Below, piece after piece: positions 1-55,810 of a stretch of DNA of 55,810 nucleotides. Within the stretch, counting starts at the first letter, position 1. Each line of letters starts with the position of its first letter. The DNA lies in the IMG/VR virus record IMGVR_UViG_3300011008_000142. One strand, 5' to 3'. The translations under genes were made by a program, and so were the position numbers. Under the pieces are notes generated by a model that searched no databases, was not told where the DNA came from, and worked only from the letters and a program-made list of their open reading frames with translations. The DNA is from a virus.

Positions 1-99
1 TCTGCCCTCTGATAGTATCATACTTCGGAGGAAATAACAACAGTGAAAGAGCCTACTCCACGAAAACTAAAATCCGGGATGTACCGTGTCCAGCTGCGT
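1..99. repeat. Terminal overlap copy 1 (identical to 55712..55810)
   Basis: Read directly: tctgccctctgatag...ccagctgcgt occurs at both ends. It runs into the integrase start, which fits assembly closure of a circle rather than a physical terminal repeat. Confidence 0.9.
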
Positions 100-1116
100 T
101 TGGGCGGGGAAAGTATATCGATCACCAGGGCGGAAAAGCAAGACTGCATTTCAGAAGCGCGGGAGATCAAAGCTGCATACCTCGCCGGTAAAAGGCCAAA
201 GGTTACTGGCAAGGAGCTGACGCTGGACCAGGCCATGGATATCTACATTGAGGACCATAAGAACGTCCTGTCGCCGACCACGATCCGCGGCTACGGTATC
301 ATCCGCCGAAACCGCTTCCAGTCGGTCATCAATAAGCGGCTGAAGGATATCAAGGACTGGCAAGCCATCGTAAATCAAGAAGCGAAGAAGGATGTTTCCC
401 CGAAGACCCTGGCAAACGCTTGGCGCTTCACCAGCTCCGTCATCCGCTATCAGAATATCACCCCGCCCAAGGTTGTGCTGCCGCAGATCAACAGCAGCAC
501 CAGGGAATGGCTCGACTATGACGAGATAAAAACCTTCATGGCCACGATCAAGGGGACATACTACGAAATGCCATGTCTGCTCGCCCTGTGTTCACTTCGG
601 CGCTCGGAGATCTTCGGCCTACACTGGGAGGACGTCGATCTGAAGCATGAGGTCATCCGGGTGCATCAGACGATGGTCCCCGATGAAGATCACCATTATG
701 TTCTCCGGGAGGCAACAAAGAACGCGACCTCTCGCCGCACCGTGCCCATCATGATCCCGCGGCTCCTGGAGCTGATGAAAGAGAAGTATGGCGCCGGTCT
801 GATATTCCGTACCAATCCCGAGGGATGCAACCGACGCATCGGCGATCTGGCCGAGGACGCCGGCCTTCCTCGCGTCAGCCTGCACGGGCTCCGGCACAGC
901 TTCGCATCCCTCGCATATCACGTCGGTATGGACGAGCGCACATGCATGGAGCTGGGCGGCTGGTCAAATCCTGCGACCATGCAGAAGATCTACACTCACG
1001 TTGCCGCAAAGGACAAGGAAAAGCACCAGAATGCAATGAAGAAATTCTTCGAGGACGCCGAGGCTCCGGCCCCAAAACCAGAAGAAAATGCTCACAAAAA
1101 TGCTCACAAGGAGTGA
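43..1116 (+). CDS. int: Tyrosine site-specific integrase
   Basis: GTG start about 10 nt after GGAGG. C-terminal catalytic signature LHGLRHSFASLAY...GGWSNPATMQKIYTHV (R..HxxR..Y). Confidence 0.92.
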   Translation: MKEPTPRKLKSGMYRVQLRLGGESISITRAEKQDCISEAREIKAAYLAGKRPKVTGKELTLDQAMDIYIEDHKNVLSPTTIRGYGIIRRNRFQSVINKRLKDIKDWQAIVNQEAKKDVSPKTLANAWRFTSSVIRYQNITPPKVVLPQINSSTREWLDYDEIKTFMATIKGTYYEMPCLLALCSLRRSEIFGLHWEDVDLKHEVIRVHQTMVPDEDHHYVLREATKNATSRRTVPIMIPRLLELMKEKYGAGLIFRTNPEGCNRRIGDLAEDAGLPRVSLHGLRHSFASLAYHVGMDERTCMELGGWSNPATMQKIYTHVAAKDKEKHQNAMKKFFEDAEAPAPKPEENAHKNAHKE

Positions 1117-1154
1117 AATATGCAGTATTTACAGGCGCTCCGGCGGTTTTTTCC

Positions 1155-1182
1155 CAGGGTTCGAATCCCTCCTTCTCCGCCA
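1155..1182 (+). other. attP core candidate: 3' end of a tRNA (T-arm, acceptor 3' strand, CCA), tRNA-Ser-like
   Basis: CAGGG-TTCGAAT-CCCTC then CTTCTCC-G-CCA. No matching 5' half lies upstream, so this is a fragment, not a gene. It sits about 40 nt after the int stop. Confidence 0.6.
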
Positions 1183-1184
1183 TA

Positions 1185-1380: not shown

Positions 1381-1437
1381 AAAAGCGCCCTCTGGCAATT
1401 CTGATCCAGGCTTGTCAGGGGGCGCTTTTGCTTTTTG
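1381..1437. terminator. Hairpin terminator, possibly bidirectional
   Basis: AAAAGCGCCCTCTG ... CAGGGGGCGCTTTT (one mismatch), with A/T runs on both sides. Confidence 0.5.
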
Positions 1438-1536
1438 TTCTTCTCACCAGTGAGAAGGATTCCCTTACCGTAGTGAAGAATATCCGCTTTTCAAGATTTT
1501 TCTTTACGATGATGCCATAATCTACGGAAAGGAGAA

Positions 1537-1806
1537 ATGGCCATGATTAGGTTTTTACTATCCACCCGACTTGGCGAAGGACGGTGGACACAAGCCGATC
1601 TTGCCAGGGCAACGGATATCAGCCCTTCTCAGATTTGGGAATGGTATCACGGATATGTAGAGAGGATCCCAGTGTATCAGCTGGAGCGCATCTGCATCGC
1701 GCTTGACTGTCAACCCGGCGATCTGTTCGACTACATACCAGATGATAGCGAAGCCGCAAAGCGCTACCATCAAACAAAACCCCGCAAGGTCGTCACCACG
1801 AAATAG
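1537..1806 (+). CDS. XRE/Cro-C1-type HTH regulator
   Basis: RBS AAAGGAG. HTH core WTQADLARATDISPSQIWEW and C-terminal LDCQPGDLFDY motif, shared with the convergent neighbour. Confidence 0.8.
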   Translation: MAMIRFLLSTRLGEGRWTQADLARATDISPSQIWEWYHGYVERIPVYQLERICIALDCQPGDLFDYIPDDSEAAKRYHQTKPRKVVTTK

Positions 1807-1830
1807 TGGTCTCTCCCTCACCCCGGATGT

Positions 1831-2058
1831 TCACGCATCCGGGGTGTTTTCGTTCTCTCGCACGAACTCGATCAGATCTCCCGGTTGGCAGTCGAGCCAG
1901 TCGCAGAGTTTATCCATCAGCGTCCATGTTGCAGGAAGACCACCTCTGCGAAGAACGGTGAGCGTCTGCTGGCCCATAAGGTTTTGTTTCCTGATTCGGT
2001 ACGAGCTGTACCCGGCCTCCTTCAGTTTGGCCATGATATCCACCTTCCAGCGAATCAT
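1831..2058 (-). CDS. XRE/Cro-C1-type HTH regulator (paralogue-like of 1537..1806)
   Basis: Start moved to MIRWKV, preceded by AAGGAGG. C-terminal LDCQPGDLIEF motif. Divergent from the accessory island. Confidence 0.7.
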   Translation of the reverse strand: MIRWKVDIMAKLKEAGYSSYRIRKQNLMGQQTLTVLRRGGLPATWTLMDKLCDWLDCQPGDLIEFVRENENTPDA

Positions 2059-2233
2059 GCTATCGCCTCCTTTGTGTTCTATATAGTAACACACGCCTGC
2101 ACTTGTGTAAAGTGTATAATATGCACAACGGCGAAGTGCTCCATTCGTCAGTTCTCACTATATACATGCACTGTTGCATGGTGTACTATGTAGACAGAAA
2201 GAAACAGAACGAAACGCACAGGAGGACACCAAA

Positions 2234-2419
2234 ATGAAGGAATACGAGATCAAGGTTTCCGCGAGCTATATCACGGACGGCGGCTCCAAAGAGTGGAACG
2301 CCTTCAAGGAATACGTCACCGCCAAGACCCCCGCCGAGGCTCGCAAGATCCTCCGGGCAGAGCTCAAGGCCGAAGGCTACAAGAACATCACTCTGAGCGA
2401 CACGATCGCCACCAACTAA
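2234..2419 (+). CDS. Hypothetical protein (61 aa)
   Basis: ATG 8 nt after AGGAGGA. First gene of the plus-strand accessory island. Confidence 0.6.
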   Translation: MKEYEIKVSASYITDGGSKEWNAFKEYVTAKTPAEARKILRAELKAEGYKNITLSDTIATN

Positions 2420-2431
2420 GGAGGAATCAAG

Positions 2432-2563
2432 ATGTACAGCAAAGAAGAGATGAAAGTCCTAAACAAGATCGCGAAGGACTGGCACGGATGCAAGTTCAAC
2501 GACCTCGACCACGAGGAACAGGACATTATCTACTGCTACGCCGAAGACGACGGACTCCTCTAA
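2432..2563 (+). CDS. Hypothetical small protein (43 aa, MYSKEEMKVLNKIAKDWHGC...)
   Basis: Not in the ORF track because it is under 60 aa. ATG 7 nt after AGGAGGA; fills the gap between neighbouring genes. Confidence 0.5.
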   Translation: MYSKEEMKVLNKIAKDWHGCKFNDLDHEEQDIIYCYAEDDGLL

Positions 2564-2639
2564 GCCGAAACGCCCGCGAGGGCGTCGAGCGGAACCGCCC
2601 CACCGCTCCTGATGATGGCAGGGCAGAAAGGCAACCAAG

Positions 2640-3281
2640 ATGAAGTTCGAGAGCATCAACCGCAAATTCACCGAGACCGTCGCCGAGTGGATGGCGAAAG
2701 GCTGGTACATCAACACTGCCTCCATGAGAGGCAGCCAGGGCGAGATCGGAAAGGTCGACCTGACGGACGGCACCGAGGTCATCCGCGTTCTGCTCGACAA
2801 CTTCCGCGAGTGGGGCATACGGATCGAGGACAAGCGGTACGAGTTCGAGGGCGTGAAGATCGTGGTCGGCAAGGTCACGGACGGCACGATCCCCAACCGC
2901 TCGGACGACTGGAACACCGTCTGGAACGAGCATCTGGAGATCATCACCAAGGAGCGCTTCTACGAGATCGGCGACAGCCGCCGCAATAAGTGGTACGGCA
3001 CCCGGGAGGAATCCATCGCCCAACAGGATAAGGCCTGGGGCCGCTACACCAGACGTCAGATCGAGAACGTTATTATCATCGGCGCCCGCAATCCCGTGGA
3101 CAACAAGAAAGTCGCCGAGATAGCCAAAGCCTATGTGAAGCGTCAGCCGAGATGCCGTAGCACAAAGCGCCGCGACATCAAGGCCGTCAAGAAGACCATC
3201 GACACCAACCGCTTCGACCGCACCGTTACCGTCCGCTACACCATCGAGACCATCAAGGGTAACACCTACCGTCTGCACTAA
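2640..3281 (+). CDS. Hypothetical protein (213 aa)
   Basis: Long ORF with protein-like composition, immediately upstream of the amidoligase. Family not recognised. Confidence 0.65.
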   Translation: MKFESINRKFTETVAEWMAKGWYINTASMRGSQGEIGKVDLTDGTEVIRVLLDNFREWGIRIEDKRYEFEGVKIVVGKVTDGTIPNRSDDWNTVWNEHLEIITKERFYEIGDSRRNKWYGTREESIAQQDKAWGRYTRRQIENVIIIGARNPVDNKKVAEIAKAYVKRQPRCRSTKRRDIKAVKKTIDTNRFDRTVTVRYTIETIKGNTYRLH

Positions 3282-3294
3282 GGAGGAAAGATCA

Positions 3295-3540
3295 ATGACC
3301 ACCATTCAGACCCAGAACTTCGGCGTAGAGATCGAGCTGACCGGCATCACCCGCGAGAAGGCCGCCAAGACTATCTCCGCGTACTTCGAGAGCAACCACC
3401 GTCACACCGGCGGCTCCTATGACACCTGGTCTGCCTACGACCGCGAGGGCCGCATCTGGAAGGCCATGTCCGACGGCTCCATACGCCGCACACGGAAAGT
3501 GGACGGGCGGCAGGTCTCCGCCGACTGGACGTACTCCTGA
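3295..3540 (+). CDS. Amidoligase (Amidoligase_2-like) N-terminal fragment, ends at in-frame TGA
   Basis: RBS AAGGAGGAAAG. FGVEIELTGITREKAA and WKAMSDGSI motifs. Same reading frame as 3547..4224. Confidence 0.75.
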   Translation: MTTIQTQNFGVEIELTGITREKAAKTISAYFESNHRHTGGSYDTWSAYDREGRIWKAMSDGSIRRTRKVDGRQVSADWTYS

Positions 3541-3546
3541 GAGATC

Positions 3547-4224
3547 GTGACCCCGATCCTCCAGTACAAAGACATGGAAGACCTCCAGCAGATCGTCCGG
3601 CTCCTGGTCAAGAAGGGCGCCGTCGCAAACGACAGCTGCGGAATCCACGTCCACGTGGACGGGGCGAATCATACCCCCGACAGTCTCTCCCGCCTGCTCA
3701 ACTTTGCCGTCGGCCGTCAGGATCTTTTCTACGAGGCCCTGCAGATCGGCGACCGCGCCAACCGCTGGTGCCACAAGGCCAACAAGGACCTGTTCAAAGC
3801 CATCAAAAAGGACCACACCGACCGCCGCACCATCGAGCGCCTGTGGTACAGCAATCTCAACGACGGATACCGCGGCGGAATCAGCCACGAGCACTACAAC
3901 GACACCCGCTACCACGGTATCAACCTTCACGCCTATTTCACAAAGGGCACCGTCGAGTTCCGGCTGTTCAACGGCACGACCCACGCCGGGAAGATCAAGG
4001 CCTACGTCCAGTTCTGCTTGGCCATGTCCGCCTGGGCGATCAACTGCCCGAACGATAACCTGTTCTTCAAGTCCACCGCCAACATGACCCAGGATCAGAA
4101 AGCCGCCCTTATGCTCCGGGTCCTCACCAAGCGACTGAAAATGCGCGGGCTGGAATTCAAGACCGCCCGGCTCCACCTCACCAGCGCCTTCACCCAGACC
4201 GCCACCGCCGAAGAAGCGGCGTAA
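3547..4224 (+). CDS. Amidoligase (Amidoligase_2-like) C-terminal fragment
   Basis: Continues EIVTPIL...CGIHVHVDG...RYHGINLH...GTVEFRLFNGTTHAGKIKAY. No separate RBS; contiguous in frame with 3295..3540. Confidence 0.75.
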   Translation: MTPILQYKDMEDLQQIVRLLVKKGAVANDSCGIHVHVDGANHTPDSLSRLLNFAVGRQDLFYEALQIGDRANRWCHKANKDLFKAIKKDHTDRRTIERLWYSNLNDGYRGGISHEHYNDTRYHGINLHAYFTKGTVEFRLFNGTTHAGKIKAYVQFCLAMSAWAINCPNDNLFFKSTANMTQDQKAALMLRVLTKRLKMRGLEFKTARLHLTSAFTQTATAEEAA

Positions 4225-4269
4225 AAACTCCGGCTGTCCTACCGGCCACACGGGGAGAAAGGGAAACGA

Positions 4270-4923
4270 ATGAATCTGTACCTCGCCTACGGTTCCAACC
4301 TCAACGTACCGCAGATGAAAAACCGCTGTCTCGATGCCGAGCCCATCGGAAAGAGCGCGATCACTGATTACCGTCTCGCGTTCCGTGGGAATTCTCGCTC
4401 CGGTGTTCTGAACATCGAGCCGTTCCCCGGCAGCTCCGTCCCCGTGGTGATCTGGAATATCTCCGAGAGGGACGAGGAAGCTCTGGATATGTACGAGGGC
4501 TACCCCCACCTGTACACGAAGCAGACCTTCACGGTGGAATTCGAGGGGAGTCAACTCCAGGCCATGGCCTACATCATGACCCCCGGCCACAAATACGCGC
4601 CGCCTTTCGACAGTTACCTCCGCACCGTGGCCGATGGCTATGACTATTTCGGCTTCGACGCCAACCCTGTGTACGAGGCCGCCACCATCGCACACGCCCA
4701 CGCCGGGAAACTCGACGCTGAGAAGCCCGTCATCAACTATGACAGTCGCGGAGAGACGGGAAATGTCTATTGGCTCCTGGGGGCCGTTCATAGCGCCTTG
4801 CGGCGCGAGCACCGTCCGACCGATTATAATACCTGCCGGGATGCCGTCCTCGCCTCTCAGAGCTATGACGAAGCTCTCAGCATCATGTCCCGGTATGTAA
4901 CGCTGGTAGACAAGAGCAAGTGA
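4270..4923 (+). CDS. AIG2-like / gamma-glutamyl cyclotransferase family protein with C-terminal extension
   Basis: N-terminal LYLAYGSNLN...YRLAF...VVIWNISERDEEALDMYEGYP pattern, typical of the GGCT/AIG2 fold. Confidence 0.7.
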   Translation: MNLYLAYGSNLNVPQMKNRCLDAEPIGKSAITDYRLAFRGNSRSGVLNIEPFPGSSVPVVIWNISERDEEALDMYEGYPHLYTKQTFTVEFEGSQLQAMAYIMTPGHKYAPPFDSYLRTVADGYDYFGFDANPVYEAATIAHAHAGKLDAEKPVINYDSRGETGNVYWLLGAVHSALRREHRPTDYNTCRDAVLASQSYDEALSIMSRYVTLVDKSK

Positions 4924-4940
4924 TCCCCATAAAACGAAAA

Positions 4941-4976
4941 ACGCCCCTCACGGTCATTTCTGGCCGAGAGGGGCGT
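4941..4976. terminator. Bidirectional hairpin terminator between convergent genes
   Basis: ACGCCCCTC ... GAGGGGCGT with A-run upstream and T-rich downstream. Lies between the 4923 stop (+) and the 4982 stop (-). Confidence 0.7.
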
Positions 4977-4981
4977 CCTGT

Positions 4982-5314
4982 TTATACATTTTCGATGATG
5001 TGTTCCTGCACGTTCACGGATCTCGACATGTCGGCAAACGCATCAATCATACTGCCGACCGCGTCAAGGTCGATGTCGTAATTGAACGTATCCGCGGCGG
5101 CCTTGACGCACGTCAAGACCCACTCCTTGCGCTCGGGGCCGGATCCGAATTTACCCTCAGCCTCCTTCATGCGCTCGAGAACGAACGTCACGACCTTCTG
5201 CCAGTTCCGCTCCTTCACCGCCGTTCTCACGGCCTCGACGAGCTTGACTACCAGCGGGATCGTCACGCTGAGCCCCGAGAGGATCGCCACGATCCATTTG
5301 ATCCATTCCTGCAT
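4982..5314 (-). CDS. Holin candidate (LL-H-type-like)
   Basis: N-terminal TM WIVAILSGLSVTIPLVV, then a charged helical domain. Last gene of the lysis cassette. Confidence 0.5.
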   Translation of the reverse strand: MQEWIKWIVAILSGLSVTIPLVVKLVEAVRTAVKERNWQKVVTFVLERMKEAEGKFGSGPERKEWVLTCVKAAADTFNYDIDLDAVGSMIDAFADMSRSVNVQEHIIENV

Positions 5315-7631: not shown

Positions 7632-7788
7632 CGTCGGTTTCCTCCTCAAACAGATCTTCGATGTCTACATCGTTCAGCACGCCGAGAAACTCGATCATTT
7701 CCATGGCCTTGTCCAGTGCGATCTTCAAACGTCTGTTCTTCCGGCGTTCTTCCTTCAACGCCTGCCTATCGTTCTTGATGATGTCCAT
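7618..7788 (-). CDS. Hypothetical small acidic protein (56 aa)
   Basis: ATG after GGAGGCATTTGT. Its stop overlaps the xkdX start (ATGACGAACAGTGA). Confidence 0.45.
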   Translation of the reverse strand: MDIIKNDRQALKEERRKNRRLKIALDKAMEMIEFLGVLNDVDIEDLFEEETDDDEQ

Positions 7789-8905
7789 ACAAATGCCTCC
7801 TTACTGGCTTGTACTGTGGTTTTTGTCGAAATGTGATTGTGTAAAACCGGTCCATATCCCGAATGAGCCCGCCGCCTGTCGCATATGACGCCTGGGATAT
7901 GAACGCCTGATAGTGATTATGCACCGCGTCCATGGTAATCTCGCCGCGATCCAGAGCGTCCTTCATCCCGGCGAGCGTCTGCCGCTCATAGCGAGGAACA
8001 CTGGGATGTAGTTTGATGATCACCTTTCCTGTGCCTGTCAGGACAAAACGTTTCCGTAGGAAGTAGAAGCCGTCTTTCAACCGGAAGATACCGGTCTTGT
8101 CTGTGCAAGTAAAGCCTCGTTCTTCCAGCATTGCCACTATGGTGTCCCGCGCCCGCTCGCACACAGACCGGTCTTTGTCCACGACCTGAAAATCATCCAT
8201 GTACCGCTGGGAATGATGGCAGAAGGTTTTCAACTCGTGGTCGATCCGGTTGAGAAGCGCCACCTGGTGAAGCTGGTTGATCTGGCTGCCGAGGCCTGTC
8301 CCCCGCGATCCGAATGGATCGGCGGCGATGACATCTTCCGGCCTCTGGTCTTTAGCGCTTACGGCGATCTCCCGCAGATATGGCAGGAATCGGTCATCCG
8401 TGATAATGGACTCATCCATCATCACGATCTCCCTGTGCGGCGTAGATGGGAAGTACTTCTTCACGTCCAGGTGGATGCCGTAACCCTCGTTCGTACCGTC
8501 CTCCATGTAAACGCTGTGCAGCATGGCGACGGTGCGGCGTATCGCCTGCTCGGTGCCCTTTCCCTTCTGGCAGGCGCTGTTGTCGTAAACGAGGCTCCTT
8601 GTCAGGTCGTCGTATACGCCGTTATTACACATAGCCCGCTGCCAAACGCGATCCTTGAACCACGGAGCTATGGCCTCGCGGCGCTTCGGGCGGTAAATCT
8701 GGACACGGTTTCCCGGACGCAGCCTGTACCGACCTTTGAGCAGGTCGGTTTTCAGCGTGTATGCTTTCATGAGGCTGTGCATATACCAGTCGGTCGGGCC
8801 GTCCTTATAGCTCACACCGCTCCGGCACTCCCGGATAGCGCGGACGAGTTCGTTCATGCTGATAGCATCGTCATACTGAGCCATGCGCTGATCATCGCCT
8901 CCCAT
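7766..8905 (-). CDS. DGR reverse transcriptase
   Basis: RT motifs including YMDD (QRYMDDFQVV) and the DGR-typical GLGSQINQL (xGxxxSQ) motif. Lies directly downstream of TR. Confidence 0.9.
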   Translation of the reverse strand: MGGDDQRMAQYDDAISMNELVRAIRECRSGVSYKDGPTDWYMHSLMKAYTLKTDLLKGRYRLRPGNRVQIYRPKRREAIAPWFKDRVWQRAMCNNGVYDDLTRSLVYDNSACQKGKGTEQAIRRTVAMLHSVYMEDGTNEGYGIHLDVKKYFPSTPHREIVMMDESIITDDRFLPYLREIAVSAKDQRPEDVIAADPFGSRGTGLGSQINQLHQVALLNRIDHELKTFCHHSQRYMDDFQVVDKDRSVCERARDTIVAMLEERGFTCTDKTGIFRLKDGFYFLRKRFVLTGTGKVIIKLHPSVPRYERQTLAGMKDALDRGEITMDAVHNHYQAFISQASYATGGGLIRDMDRFYTITFRQKPQYKPVRRHLYGHHQER

Positions 8906-9222
8906 AACAGAAAAGCGGCCTCCGAGCGTTCATCTGCTCAGAAGCCGGTTTCCCGGCGCCGCCGCTGATAGCAGCACACCCGAAGCGCCTGCGTCGTCAG
9001 AGCACGGTTTGCCATTCCGTGCGCGGCCTCTTTTTGCCCTTACGGGACAGGAAAACGGCTCCCTGCGCGAGTGCTTTGCTTTCGGCAGATTGCTTACTTG
9101 TCTCTCGCGTATCTCGCAGTCTGGGCACGACCCCGTTCGCGTTGTTCGCGTTGTTGTTGTTGAGAGCGCCGGACGGGAGCACGTTCCGGACGTTGTTGCC
9201 GTTGGACGGGTTCACGGAGCCT
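8906..9222 (-). ncRNA. DGR template RNA region (TR plus about 210-nt spacer preceding RT)
   Basis: Non-coding stretch between avd and RT that contains TR. The ORF 8997..9482 across it is Asn-codon rich only within TR. Confidence 0.5.
9116..9222 (-). repeat. DGR template repeat (TR), 107 bp
   Basis: Aligns base-for-base with 10006..10112. All 17 differences lie at T on the plus strand, which is A in the sense strand. TR carries 12 AAC codons. Confidence 0.93.
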
Positions 9223-9994: not shown

Positions 9995-11443
9995 TTACGC
10001 GATATGCAGGCTGGGCACGACCCCGTACGCGCTGCTCGCGTAGCCGCTGCTGAGAGCGCCGGACGGGAGCACGAGCCGGACGTGGTGGCCGACGGACGGG
10101 CCCACGGAGCCTAGCCACCAGTAATACGCAGCCGAATCTTCTTTGATCCTGTCCGCCTGTTCGTTGTTCTCCTGCCAATAGCTGTATGCTGTGGTTCTCG
10201 TGAGGTTCCCGCTGGCATCCACGGGACCTTCGGAGATGTTGTTGTTCTTGCTTCCGAACACGTCCAGCATCGTGGCCAGGGTGACGTAGTCCTCCACATC
10301 CTCGTAGCCGTAACCGTCCGAAATAGACAGGGCATAGCGCTTCCGCACTTTGCACAGCACCGCACGCAGCTCCGAATCCAGCGTATGCAGGAATCCCTCC
10401 GGGGTGGCGCTGGTGTTGCGGCTCCAGATGGTGCCGGGCTTCCAGGCCAGAGCTGCATCGTCACTGTTGAGCAGCTGACGGAGATACGACGTGCTCCAGC
10501 GGTTCGAGCCGTAGATCTGGCGGTCTGTGAAATTGATGTAGTCCCCGGACTTATACTGCGGATCGCGCGCTGTTGCGGTGCCGAGGTTTATGCCATCAGA
10601 TCCTTCGGTTGTGGTCAAACCCGTTTCCAGCGTGGTAATGGTGTCCGCACCGTATGTGATAAAGGTGCCGCCGGTTACATGGCTCTTTACATAGCCAGAC
10701 GAATCAGAAAGCCATCCACCTATCGTGGTATGCCGGATGCCACCGCCGATAGGGATATCCACGGTGGTCGTGAACTGATACGTCCCATCCTCACCTGTAC
10801 CGTTGCTGTACGATCCGTGGTTGAGAGTGACATTGTATGTACCAGCGGGGAGCACCGAGCCCGTAATGCCGAGAGCCGCCAGAGATTCAGCCGTCACCGG
10901 GAACAGATACTGCGGAGGATCGAAGTTAATCCTTCCCATGATCTTATCCCGCTGGATCGTCAGCACATGCTCCAGCTCGCTGTTGACGGGCGTCTCCTCG
11001 TCGATGCCCATCGCGTTGTAGTCCGCCGCGCCTGCCGCAACGACCACGGTGATCGTATCGTCTGCCGCTGGGGTGCCGGTGATCGAAACACCGTAGCTCG
11101 CGAGGGTCACTGCGTGACCGCCGTGATACCATGCCGCACCGTCGTAGGTGAACACATACGTTCCCGTGGCGGATTCCACCGCCGCCAGGAACGTGTCTTT
11201 CACCACCGTCGGCGTGCCGCTCAGCGAGCCGCCGACCGAGGCCGTGATGGTGTAGCCGCTGTTGACGGAGAGCTGATCCCCGGCGCTCAGATACCGCCTG
11301 ATACGGTTGTGCCGGACGGCGCCCTGGAACTGCGCCCATGTTTCCAGTTTACCGGGCGCGAGTTCGCCGATAGAGTCGGCCACGGATTCCAACGCAGCCG
11401 CCACTCGTTCGGCTTTGGTTCCTTCCCAAATGCTTACGCTCAT
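9995..11443 (-). CDS. DGR target: tail-fibre / receptor-binding protein with C-terminal variable (C-type-lectin-fold-like) region
   Basis: Position in the fibre cluster. C-terminal ...YYWWLGSVGPSVGHHVRLVLPSGALSSGYASSAYGVVPSLHIA is encoded by VR. Confidence 0.85.
   Translation of the reverse strand: MSVSIWEGTKAERVAAALESVADSIGELAPGKLETWAQFQGAVRHNRIRRYLSAGDQLSVNSGYTITASVGGSLSGTPTVVKDTFLAAVESATGTYVFTYDGAAWYHGGHAVTLASYGVSITGTPAADDTITVVVAAGAADYNAMGIDEETPVNSELEHVLTIQRDKIMGRINFDPPQYLFPVTAESLAALGITGSVLPAGTYNVTLNHGSYSNGTGEDGTYQFTTTVDIPIGGGIRHTTIGGWLSDSSGYVKSHVTGGTFITYGADTITTLETGLTTTEGSDGINLGTATARDPQYKSGDYINFTDRQIYGSNRWSTSYLRQLLNSDDAALAWKPGTIWSRNTSATPEGFLHTLDSELRAVLCKVRKRYALSISDGYGYEDVEDYVTLATMLDVFGSKNNNISEGPVDASGNLTRTTAYSYWQENNEQADRIKEDSAAYYWWLGSVGPSVGHHVRLVLPSGALSSGYASSAYGVVPSLHIA
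10006..10112 (-). repeat. DGR variable repeat (VR), 107 bp
   Basis: See TR. VR codons GVHHL...SSGY.SS.Y replace the 12 TR Asn codons. The invariant GC-rich 3' segment CGGGGTCGTGCCCAG lies at 10011..10025. Confidence 0.93.
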
Positions 11444-54081: not shown

Positions 54082-54300
54082 TTATGCGACATTCTCAGCA
54101 AAAAAAATTGCCACGGCCTCATCCTTGGTGAGATGGAGAATGCGAATGATCTCATTGGCTTCACAGACCAGCATCGTTTTACCGTTATCCCGCAGCTTAC
54201 GATACAGAGTAGCCTTATCGATCTCCATCTCACGGGCGAGATCCGCGACGGACCAGCCAAGCTCGACAAGTTTTCCTTTGAGCTTGTTGACGTTGACCAC
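54082..54300 (-). CDS. cro: Cro-like HTH regulator
   Basis: GTG start after GGAGGA. WSVADLAREMEIDKATLYRKL HTH. Divergent from the cI-like gene. Confidence 0.75.
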   Translation of the reverse strand: MVNVNKLKGKLVELGWSVADLAREMEIDKATLYRKLRDNGKTMLVCEANEIIRILHLTKDEAVAIFFAENVA

Positions 54301-54324: not shown

Positions 54325-54444
54325 GTCGCATTTCGTGCGACCATCTGCATATTACACCCGATCCCTTTGTTATGTCAACACTTTTTTCGCAAAATCTGCG
54401 AAAATTTTATTTACTTCGTGAAATAATGGTTGCATATTTGCAAC
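54325..54444. promoter_or_regulatory. Lysogeny switch: three palindromic operator candidates
   Basis: GTCGCA-N5-TGCGAC (54325..54341), TTCGCA-N5-TGCGAA (54386..54402), GTTGCA-N4-TGCAAC (54429..54444). Confidence 0.55.
54349..54378 (-). promoter_or_regulatory. Early (cro-side) promoter
   Basis: Minus-sense TTGACA (54378..54373), 18-nt spacer ending TG, TAATAT (54354..54349). Confidence 0.6.
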
Positions 54445-54458
54445 TCTTATAATATAAT
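54430..54458 (+). promoter_or_regulatory. Repressor-side promoter
   Basis: TTGCAT (54430..54435), 17-nt spacer, TATAAT (54453..54458). Overlaps the third operator. Confidence 0.6.
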
Positions 54459-54483
54459 AAATGTCCCGAAGGAGGGCGGTATT

Positions 54484-55032
54484 ATGATGACGATGGGAGA
54501 GAGGATCCGCGCAAGACGTGAGCAGCTTGGCTACAATGCGGATTACCTGGGAAAGCTGGTTGGGAAGAACCGAGCCACGATTTACAGATACGAAAACGGG
54601 GATGTAACCACGATCCCCGCCGATGTTGTCGCCGATCTTGCTTCCGTGCTGCACGTTCCTGTGCAATACCTGTACGGGGTGGAAGATGATAGTGAATGGT
54701 CGCTGCTCTTCTGTGATACGCTGGCCGCAATTCTGGCCAATGCAGATCGCGAGGATATCACCGCGGCCGGCATTGATCTCGCATCACTGGAACGTGTTGT
54801 CAAGGGAGAAACCGCCCTTATGCTGGATCTCGCCTGTTCGATCTGCGACCAGCTGGGCGAAACATTGGACACCATGCTCGGCCGCGATCCGATAGAAAGC
54901 ATCAAGGCCGCCATCGGTGACGATGGCGACCTCGGTGCTCAGATCATTGATGCAATTCTTCATCTGTCGGAGTCCTCGAAGCTAAAGGCGCTCGGGTACC
55001 TTCAAGCGCTTCAAGCGAACGAACAAAAGTAA
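54484..55032 (+). CDS. cI: CI-like repressor (XRE HTH plus C-terminal domain)
   Basis: Start MMTMGERI after GAAGGAGGG. ERIRARREQLGYNADYLGKLVGKNRATIYRYENG HTH. Confidence 0.8.
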   Translation: MMTMGERIRARREQLGYNADYLGKLVGKNRATIYRYENGDVTTIPADVVADLASVLHVPVQYLYGVEDDSEWSLLFCDTLAAILANADREDITAAGIDLASLERVVKGETALMLDLACSICDQLGETLDTMLGRDPIESIKAAIGDDGDLGAQIIDAILHLSESSKLKALGYLQALQANEQK

Positions 55033-55711: not shown

Positions 55712-55810
55712 TCTGCCCTCTGATAGTATCATACTTCGGAGGAAATAACAACAGTGAAAGAGCCTACTCCACGAAAACTAAAATCCGGGATGTACCGTGT
55801 CCAGCTGCGT
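55712..55810. repeat. Terminal overlap copy 2 (identical to 1..99)
   Basis: Read directly. Confidence 0.9.

Follow-up and report, generated by a model that had tools for sequence, protein, structure and literature searches.

The window analysed here, a 55,810-nt stretch of viral DNA (IMG/VR virus record IMGVR_UViG_3300011008_000142), carries at positions 2234-4923 an island of five plus-strand open reading frames (ORFs), two of which encode an amidoligase of the Pfam Amidoligase_2 family and a gamma-glutamyl cyclotransferase (GGCT) of the AIG2 type. The first 99 nt of the window (1-99) recur exactly at 55712-55810, so that the contig is circular and represents a complete phage genome without host flanks; its sequence is identical to the ENA contig ERZ3810914 NODE_70. 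The region is best read as a variable cargo island close to the phage attachment site (attP) of a temperate phage that resembles Taranis and infects Oscillospiraceae or Faecalibacterium. The closest cultured relatives are the Faecalibacterium phages FP_Taranis and Pioen, with 62% identity in the terminase protein TerL and 68% in the amidoligase. Megablast of positions 1400-5100 against annotated phages gave zero matches, and protein-level searches alone were informative. A preliminary description of the locus had reported five plus-strand ORFs, all of which are present, and the island and its immediate surroundings comprise the following features.

1537-1806, plus strand: HTH_26 (Cro/C1-type) gene of 89 amino acids, referred to as HTH+ (Pfam HTH_26, E 3.4e-17)
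1831-2058, minus strand: divergent HTH_26 regulator gene of 75 amino acids (Pfam HTH_26, E 1.3e-8)
2059-2233, no strand assigned: divergent intergenic region and presumed island promoter, in which a consensus scan gave a minus-strand site only
2234-2419, plus strand: orf61, 61 amino acids, coding score 0.40
2432-2563, plus strand: orf43, 43 amino acids, coding score 0.46
2563-2627, plus strand: type II hammerhead ribozyme (Rfam RF02276)
2640-3281, plus strand: orf213, 213 amino acids (phrog_38037)
3295-4224, plus strand: Amidoligase_2 gene (Pfam) with an in-frame TGA at 3538-3540, a probable pseudogene
4270-4923, plus strand: GGCT/AIG2-like cyclotransferase fusion of 217 amino acids (Pfam GGACT, phrog_2520, phrog_1933)
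4941-4976, no strand assigned: bidirectional hairpin resembling an intrinsic terminator, separating the island from the convergent holin-like and endolysin genes

The island is bracketed by a divergent helix-turn-helix (HTH) gene and a bidirectional terminator, as first described. On the left, the divergent HTH_26 gene, which is the same gene as Taranis gp84, likely starts at the ATG at 2058 with AGGAGG 7 nt upstream, and the HTH+ gene that converges on it is followed by a terminator-like hairpin (1819-1846). The consensus scan of the divergent region resolved no plus-strand sigma-70-like promoter for the island; the promoter-like minus-strand site that it returned (2111-2083) overlaps a longer GTG start of the divergent gene, and a candidate TATAAT hexamer at 2115-2120 was noted by eye only. 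On the right, the hairpin at 4941-4976 has a predicted stability of -30.5 kcal/mol (z = -4.31, with 0/200 shuffles as stable) and is flanked by an A-tract on its 5' side and a T-rich tract on its 3' side. Each of the five ORFs is preceded by a Shine-Dalgarno-like sequence, and their codon-usage scores of 0.31-0.46 are phage-typical and among the highest of the phage.

Searches with profile hidden Markov models (HMMs) confirmed the assignment of two of the proteins to the amidoligase and AIG2/GGCT families, with Pfam matches above the curated cut-offs in both cases; an NCBIfam scan of the five island proteins gave no match. For the amidoligase, the match to Amidoligase_2 (PF12224) runs across the stop codon (220.4 bits against a cut-off of 22, E 4.4e-65), residues 6-244 aligning to profile positions 2-244 of 245, and the PHROGs match is phrog_2443, 'amidoligase enzyme'. 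A sequence search against the PDB found nothing real. The AlphaFold2 model of an intact homologue of 93% identity (pLDDT 90.8) has YbdK/GCS2 as its best PDB match (1R8G; E 2.8e-5, probability 1.0, TM 0.43), followed in Foldseek by glutamine synthetases (GS) and gamma-glutamylmethylamide synthetase, and these fold matches support a GS-type ATP-dependent carboxylate-amine ligase. The translation contains the motifs GVEIE, xE-h-h-[ST]-P, HVHV and EFR, within which E12, E14, E83, H118, H120, E221 and R223 are invariant in 57 homologues; their catalytic role is one that we assume from knowledge of the GS family. ATP-dependent amide-bond formation is accordingly only the predicted activity of a family that is large (about 7000 homologues at E up to 1e-20 in the protein collection). 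A literature search found no biochemical data and no experimentally shown function reported for any of its members, in agreement with the preliminary description. The Klebsiella 'amidoligase-like' protein CfmP was set aside as an ATP-grasp enzyme of no relevance here.

The C-terminal approximately 40 residues of the amidoligase (residues ~262-300, positions 4075-4200) make up a basic two-helix motif with the pattern ..K....R..L.RLG..G.EFK..R..L...L.G..AF. It recurs in distant relatives at the end of unrelated proteins of ~250-290 amino acids that are encoded immediately upstream (L085 5109-5870, L086 4518-5309 and the upstream ORFs of L131-L168), none of which has a Pfam domain. Jackhmmer recovered these distant upstream proteins only because they share the ~40-residue motif with the amidoligase; it may be a module for docking or targeting that these proteins have in common.

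The cyclotransferase fusion looks intact in this genome. It matches Pfam GGACT (PF06094; 47.4 bits against a cut-off of 22.8, E 3.4e-12), AIG2_2 (PF13772; 28.9 bits against a cut-off of 27) and phrog_2520, 'gamma-glutamyl cyclotransferase' (E 1.2e-35), a family that PHROGs places in the category 'moron, auxiliary metabolic gene and host takeover'. The segment LYLAYGSNL aligns with LYFAYGSNL of human GGCT (E 3.6e-6), so that the YGSNL motif is kept, and DMYEG aligns with human DEQEG, its Glu matching the catalytic Glu98, a column that holds Gln in the entry 3CRY. Release of 5-oxoproline from a gamma-glutamyl amide is the activity predicted from this family membership. The GGCT domain occupies residues 1-145 and is followed by an extra C-terminal module of 68 residues (4717-4920), of which residues 160-211 of the protein match phrog_1933, a family with no assigned function. 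In L005, L067 and L083 the module is a separate ORF of ~70 residues directly after the GGCT gene. A word-indexed search with the module returned a single match, and an exhaustive search returned 116 representative clusters, mostly of 65-75 amino acids and mainly free-standing; among ten longer or fusion proteins that carry it, Pfam found DUF4314 in one and nothing else.

The genomic contexts of the pair were surveyed at 169 loci, comprising 80 viral contigs, 80 species-representative genomes, annotated phage records and exact-match contigs. The amidoligases were grouped at 90% identity into 71 clusters, and neighbours were counted only where a cluster offered 1.5 kb or more of sequence on the side in question. 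A GGCT gene lies within 3.5 kb downstream on the same strand in 50 of 63 clusters, in 30 of them within 150 nt, and the early claim that the pairing is conserved in mobile elements of Firmicutes (Bacillota) is thus well founded. The other neighbours are less regular: a Zn-ribbon protein is encoded downstream in 28 of 63 clusters, an HTH+ gene lies within 3 kb upstream in 39 of 62, and a member of the orf213 family is found upstream in 7 of 62. These counts indicate that the conserved unit is the enzyme pair and that the remainder is exchangeable cargo, so the idea of a conserved five-gene neighbourhood had to be abandoned; the five genes do not co-occur elsewhere. The genomes surveyed belong to Oscillospiraceae, Lachnospiraceae, Negativicutes and others. 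An amidoligase-GGCT pair has also been listed in C. clostridioforme prophages (PMC11318856), and the Heliusvirales phage PV036426 encodes an amidoligase followed by an annotated GGCT, the amidoligase not being mentioned in the Heliusvirales paper.

The three proteins encoded upstream of the pair had been proposed as its substrates or partners, and their distribution does not bear this out. For orf61, there is no Pfam, PHROG, NCBIfam or PADLOC match, and a homologue (E 2e-24) was found in L003 only, directly before an intact amidoligase; orf43 has no family match in Pfam or PHROGs and is confined to the identical contigs L087, L088 and L089, with no relatives otherwise. The orf213 product belongs to the phrog_38037 family (E 1.5e-41), and none of its 81 homologues of about 200 amino acids has a Pfam domain. 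Its AlphaFold2 model (pLDDT 88.5) is an alpha+beta fold with no fold match in the PDB (best Foldseek E 0.21, TM below 0.25), and its profile found nothing among PDB sequences. Homologues of orf213 also occur in islands that lack an amidoligase and encode DarA_C, DUF4314 and DUF2786 proteins instead. Since orf213 is rarely upstream of the amidoligase and the small ORFs are nearly private, a dedicated partnership is unlikely, and the three genes are best described as probable interchangeable cargo of the island. The possibility that orf213 is a degenerate paralogue of the ~250-residue proteins encoded before the amidoligase in distant relatives was rejected (hhalign probability 0.5%).

The position of the island within the phage genome is defined by a second group of features to its left.

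43-1116, plus strand: tyrosine integrase, part of the plus-strand block
1150-1183, plus strand: tRNA 3' fragment (T-arm, acceptor strand, CCA), probable attP core, with the sequence GGGTTCGAATCCCTCCTTCTCCGCCA read directly
1184-1208: terminator hairpin directly 3' of the probable attP core

The tRNA fragment (GGGTTCGAATCCC...TCCGCCA, at about 1156-1183) lies 34-67 nt past the integrase stop and ~1 kb from the island, and in integrated relatives a whole tRNA-Ala, tRNA-Leu, tRNA-Gln or tmRNA gene is found immediately upstream of the HTH+ gene. The attP-proximal position given in the preliminary description is thereby confirmed, and after integration the island would end up at the extreme end of the prophage, with the attachment site on one side and the convergent holin-like and endolysin genes on the other. 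All lytic genes are on the minus strand, and a single plus-strand block, consisting of the CI-like repressor (54430-55032), orf98, the integrase, the HTH_26 gene (1537-1806) and the island (2234-4923), spans the contig junction. The island is therefore opposite in direction to the lytic genes but not, as had been stated, to the whole rest of the phage, since the integrase, HTH+, the CI-like repressor and orf98 share its strand.

In distant relatives the setting is different. The amidoligase gene of relatives of 45-49% identity, like that of the Heliusvirales phages PV036446 and PV036426, is on the lytic strand, between DNA methyltransferases and terminase. Pfam analysis of 52 long neighbouring ORFs identified TerL (10), portal (6), N6_N4_Mtase with ParB_N (5) and C5 methylase (4), together with VirB4/TraG-like ATPases (4) and MobL relaxase (2), and also Fic, NlpC/P60 and DUF4314. 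Location on the lytic strand, or beside type IV secretion system (T4SS) and relaxase genes, argues against a function tied to lysogeny. Sister islands, at the prophage end or before terminase, encode DarA_C, DUF4314, YodL-like and Nmad4 proteins (L172 6083-6737; L174 7867-8403; L081 8810-9148; L086 7809-8093), and DUF2786 proteins as well. We take DarA_C, DUF4314, YodL and Nmad4 to be families typical of the anti-restriction or 'polyvalent-protein' sets that phages and conjugative elements carry.

The preliminary description gave the gene set of the operon correctly and overlooked the hammerhead ribozyme, which exactly occupies the spacer between orf43 and orf213 (2563-2627). The match to Rfam RF02276 scores 37.6 bits against a gathering score of 37 (E 4e-4 over the whole window, 2.7e-6 locally). 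The core is complete (CUGAUGA, GAAA and GUC, with predicted cleavage 3' of C2586), and the motif has a GNRA-capped stem III, a 6-bp stem I and a short stem II with a UG insertion; GCCC in loop I (2597-2600) is complementary to GGGC in the 3' tail (2621-2624), forming a pseudoknot, and the tail enters AGAAAGG, the ribosome-binding site of orf213. The conserved UG insertion between CUGAUGA and stem II, CUGAUGAUGGCAG, is a trait of a subfamily that is present in at least 120 viral contigs. Members at L172 2672-2738 and L174 6928-6994 show compensatory stem changes, and those in L097, where the motif lies between the amidoligase and GGCT genes, and in L100 show that the intergenic junction it occupies varies among related islands. 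Among 121 distinct relatives there are 60 variants of stem I and 33 of stem III, with a median of 6 consecutive pairs per stem, and the pseudoknot 4-mer is complementary in 104 of the 121, involving 18 different 4-mers, against 23.7 (maximum 37) in 500 shuffles. In 41 of 123 sequences the 3' tail continues into AGAAAGG, the ribosome-binding site of the next gene. A CRISPR-DR21 match at 2555-2591 (E 0.22) was discarded, being merely the antisense of stem III. The ribozyme would be expected to cut the polycistronic transcript, and cleavage would split the orf61-orf43 message from the orf213-amidoligase-GGCT message, and the downstream piece would begin with a 5'-OH and the stem I hairpin, followed by the AGAAAGG ribosome-binding site.

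Taken together, these data favor, with a probability of about 0.55, the view that the island consists of accessory cargo, that its conserved core first makes and later resolves a gamma-glutamyl-type amide in the service of the mobile element, and that its ligase has been inactivated in this particular genome. In the most likely mechanism, the ligase would first convert a carboxylate, most plausibly that at the gamma position of glutamate, into an acyl-phosphate and then couple it to an amine carried by a small molecule or a protein; from the resulting gamma-glutamyl amide the cyclotransferase would release 5-oxoproline and the free amine, so that the glutamyl group would act as a transient tag or protecting group. 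The pair would serve the element during entry, establishment or lytic growth, in host takeover or counter-defence, rather than in protection of the lysogen.

The preliminary description had instead proposed a lysogen-expressed conversion or anti-phage defence cassette, transcribed from its own promoter under the divergent HTH regulator and protecting or altering the host. The prophage-end position beside a tRNA attachment site, which stands, speaks for this proposal, as do the orientation opposite to the lytic genes, the insulation of the island from the lysis genes by a dedicated divergent HTH gene and a strong terminator, and the PHROGs class of the GGCT. However, a scan with PADLOC-DB v2 (E up to 0.01) matched none of the five island proteins to a defence-system model, the lone match being a marginal 'mad1' for the HTH+ protein (E 0.01). 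Elsewhere the pair is found in lytic-strand arrays before terminase or beside T4SS and relaxase genes; the co-resident DarA_C, YodL and DUF4314 proteins and nearby orphan methylases are of the anti-restriction, element-benefit type; and both the broken ligase and the failure of the five genes to co-occur elsewhere are difficult to reconcile with a working cassette of this kind. Mobile-element cargo of the anti-restriction kind fits better, and we regard a lysogen-expressed cassette as rather unlikely, while still taking it seriously.

A more doubtful alternative is that the pair modifies nucleic acid, the ligase attaching an amino-acid-type group to a DNA base or nucleotide and the cyclotransferase trimming it, thereby protecting the DNA of the element. 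In distant relatives the pair directly follows DNA methyltransferases, and one such phage has a gene for Nmad4, a 'nucleotide modification associated domain', just downstream of the GGCT gene, with two small ORFs between them; amidoligase-domain genes and thymidine-hypermodification genes have also been reported together in viral contigs (PMC8989533). Against this, neither the island nor the Taranis annotation includes a hydroxymethylase, 5-HMUDK kinase, aGPT-Pplase or DpdA-type gene, Nmad4 occurs in only 1 of 63 clusters, and the proximity of the methylases may merely reflect a shared accessory-gene region.

It is less probable still that the two enzymes run a futile cycle (Glu + ATP -> gamma-Glu-X -> 5-oxoproline + X) that depletes glutamate and ATP or overloads the cell with 5-oxoproline, as a toxin or a form of metabolic takeover. 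The GS/GCS2-type fold and the intact catalytic motif of the GGCT would permit such chemistry, and the tight adjacency of the genes suggests co-expression, but neither a toxin-antitoxin-like partner nor evidence of toxicity was found, the ligase occurs by itself in the Taranis group, which would give no cycle there, and the proposal is drawn purely from the chemistry of the families.

The inactivation of the ligase, which forms part of the reading that we prefer, is indicated by the TGA at 3538-3540, noted in the preliminary description as an interruption of the gene. The codon is TGC (Cys) in three relatives (L003, Taranis and L005), Cys82 and the adjoining Glu83 do not vary among 57 homologues with identities of 65% or more, and the genes nearest to it, with 93%, 91% and 85% identity, are intact and encode 309-310 amino acids. 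TGA terminates 42 of the 80 ORFs of the phage and is its commonest stop; since it is a normal stop here, the ligase is most likely dead, a recent and very probably inactive pseudogene in a module that appears to be decaying, and the cassette as it stands could not run the proposed cycle of addition and removal. A distant amidoligase homologue in a Clostridia genome (L166 6387-7424) carries a different in-frame stop, TAG, and indicates nonsense decay of the gene in at least one other lineage.

That the TGA is instead an error of assembly or sequencing, with an intact ligase in the real phage, is about as improbable as the futile cycle. The window differs from its relatives by a single base here and the contig coverage, according to the ENA record name, is only about 14x; yet the change is a substitution and not a homopolymer indel, and a JGI contig of 1785 nt from another data set is 100% identical to positions 1880-3664, TGA included, so that the occurrence of the same allele in the ENA and JGI contigs argues against random error. 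Decoding of the TGA as selenocysteine or tryptophan, or by programmed read-through, giving a full-length active amidoligase, is the least credible of these alternatives: it could appeal to the replaced Cys codon, which is the usual Sec/Cys pattern, and to the persistence of the allele in two assemblies, but it conflicts with the prevalence of TGA as a genuine stop, with the use of TGC by all close relatives, with the presence of Thr or Val at the position in 18 of 69 clusters, which indicates that the Cys is not redox-active or catalytic, and with the RNA, in which the fold after the TGA is no more SECIS-like than shuffles (z -0.26), an Rfam SECIS search at E up to 10 found no match, and the small hairpin 3' of the TGA, which encodes conserved residues, is for that reason found in TGC-bearing relatives as well. 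A bacterial selenoprotein gene was rejected on the absence of SECIS and the tolerance of Thr and Val.

Several points weigh against the interpretation of the island as element-serving amide-cycle cargo with a dead ligase. In the Taranis cluster, with its 54 loci, the amidoligase is kept together with orf213 and no GGCT can be recognised; evidently the ligase does not need the cyclotransferase in order to work. The substrate, the activated carboxylate and the order of the reactions are drawn from family chemistry only, and a prophage-end island with its own divergent regulator and terminator is the classical site of lysogen-expressed conversion genes. The two assemblies that bear the TGA could come from related samples, and low-level read-through of UGA could leave residual activity, given that Thr or Val is tolerated at the position in relatives. 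Finally, the score of the hammerhead is barely above the Rfam gathering threshold, with a 2-nt insertion beside stem II.

A bolder reading, which we put forward tentatively and consider rather unlikely, is that the pair writes and erases gamma-glutamyl-type marks on a macromolecule of the host or of the element, in loose analogy to pupylation and depupylation by GS-fold enzymes. Phages and conjugative elements of gut Bacillota would use such a system during entry or lytic growth, against host defences or to redirect host machinery. If this is true, the gut virome would harbour a widespread form of counter-defence chemistry that has gone unstudied. Among temperate phages and conjugative elements of the human gut the pair is common, and a tractable example could open new phage-host biochemistry. 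Because its ligase is broken, this locus is a poor entry point; better ones are L003 and L171, with intact versions of the island, and the cultured phages Taranis and Pioen, with an intact ligase and no GGCT. The survey also marks orf213 and the small ORFs as incidental neighbours and not as a basis for the design of experiments, and the hammerhead within the operon provides a concrete case for asking whether prophage ribozymes separate the messages of accessory genes.

Two further elements of the phage genome were noted outside the island. The CI-like repressor gene (54430-55032, plus strand; 182-200 amino acids, HTH_3/HTH_31) is divergent from a 72-residue gene (54082-54300, minus strand) that heads the lytic-strand genes, and this arrangement is a probable lysis-lysogeny switch. 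To the right of the island, a diversity-generating retroelement (DGR) comprises a reverse transcriptase gene (7766-8905, minus strand), a 107-nt template repeat (9116-9222) and a variable repeat (10006-10112), the latter at the 3' end of a DUF6273 target gene (9995-11443, minus strand). The repeats are 84% identical, with mismatches nearly confined to template adenines. In relatives the Rfam RT-14 RNA adjoins the reverse transcriptase gene, and the Taranis homologue of the target is already annotated as a DGR target.

Much of what is found at the locus has known counterparts. Amidoligase_2-Aig2/GGCT pairs were reportedly predicted for phages and conjugative elements of Firmicutes by Iyer, Abhiman, Burroughs and Aravind in 2009; both families are named in PHROGs (phrog_2443 and phrog_2520), the Taranis amidoligase is annotated, and the hammerhead class has been described. 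As in the other pairs, the two genes are adjacent, on the same strand and on a mobile element, but the ligase here has a nonsense codon and the GGCT is fused to a 68-residue module; compared with the distant members, which lie before terminase, the island is at the prophage end and antisense to the lytic genes. FP_Taranis (NC_047914, gp77-gp85) and Pioen share with the window the order of recombinase, att site, HTH+, divergent HTH gene, phrog_38037 protein, amidoligase and small genes, and likewise end in convergent holin, endolysin and the reverse transcriptase of a DGR. Unlike the window, they have an intact ligase of 312 residues, no hammerhead at the gathering threshold and, in place of the GGCT, two proteins of ~133 residues without assigned function, a Zn-ribbon protein and a 59-residue protein.

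At the level of fold, the phage amidoligase shares a GS-like architecture with YbdK/GCS2, glutamine synthetase and gamma-glutamylmethylamide synthetase (Foldseek E 2.8e-5 to 1e-3, probability 0.96-1.0) and conserves the GS-like strand motifs GxExE, xE, HxH and ExR. It differs from these enzymes in its low identity (10-14%, TM about 0.4), its shorter length (309 residues), its lack of the GS N-terminal domain and its C-terminal two-helix tail, which they do not have; the Pup ligase PafA is also counted among the GS-fold structural relatives. The logic of the proposed cycle resembles that of BtrJ and BtrG in butirosin biosynthesis, in which a ligase adds a gamma-glutamyl group as a transient protecting group and a GGCT-fold enzyme removes it as 5-oxoproline. 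BtrJ, however, is an ATP-grasp and not a GS-like enzyme, and it acts on carrier-protein-bound intermediates within a biosynthetic cluster, nothing cluster-like being present here.

The closest parallel for the ribozyme is the set of type II hammerheads described by Perreault et al. (2011, PMC3088659), which flank short gene blocks near prophage integrases and for which a role in the processing of long phage transcripts was proposed. The motif in the window has the same core, topology, short stem II and pseudoknot between loop I and the 3' tail, and the same intergenic placement between short prophage gene blocks near an integrase; to these traits its subfamily adds the UG insertion and a 3' tail that often enters the ribosome-binding site of the next gene.

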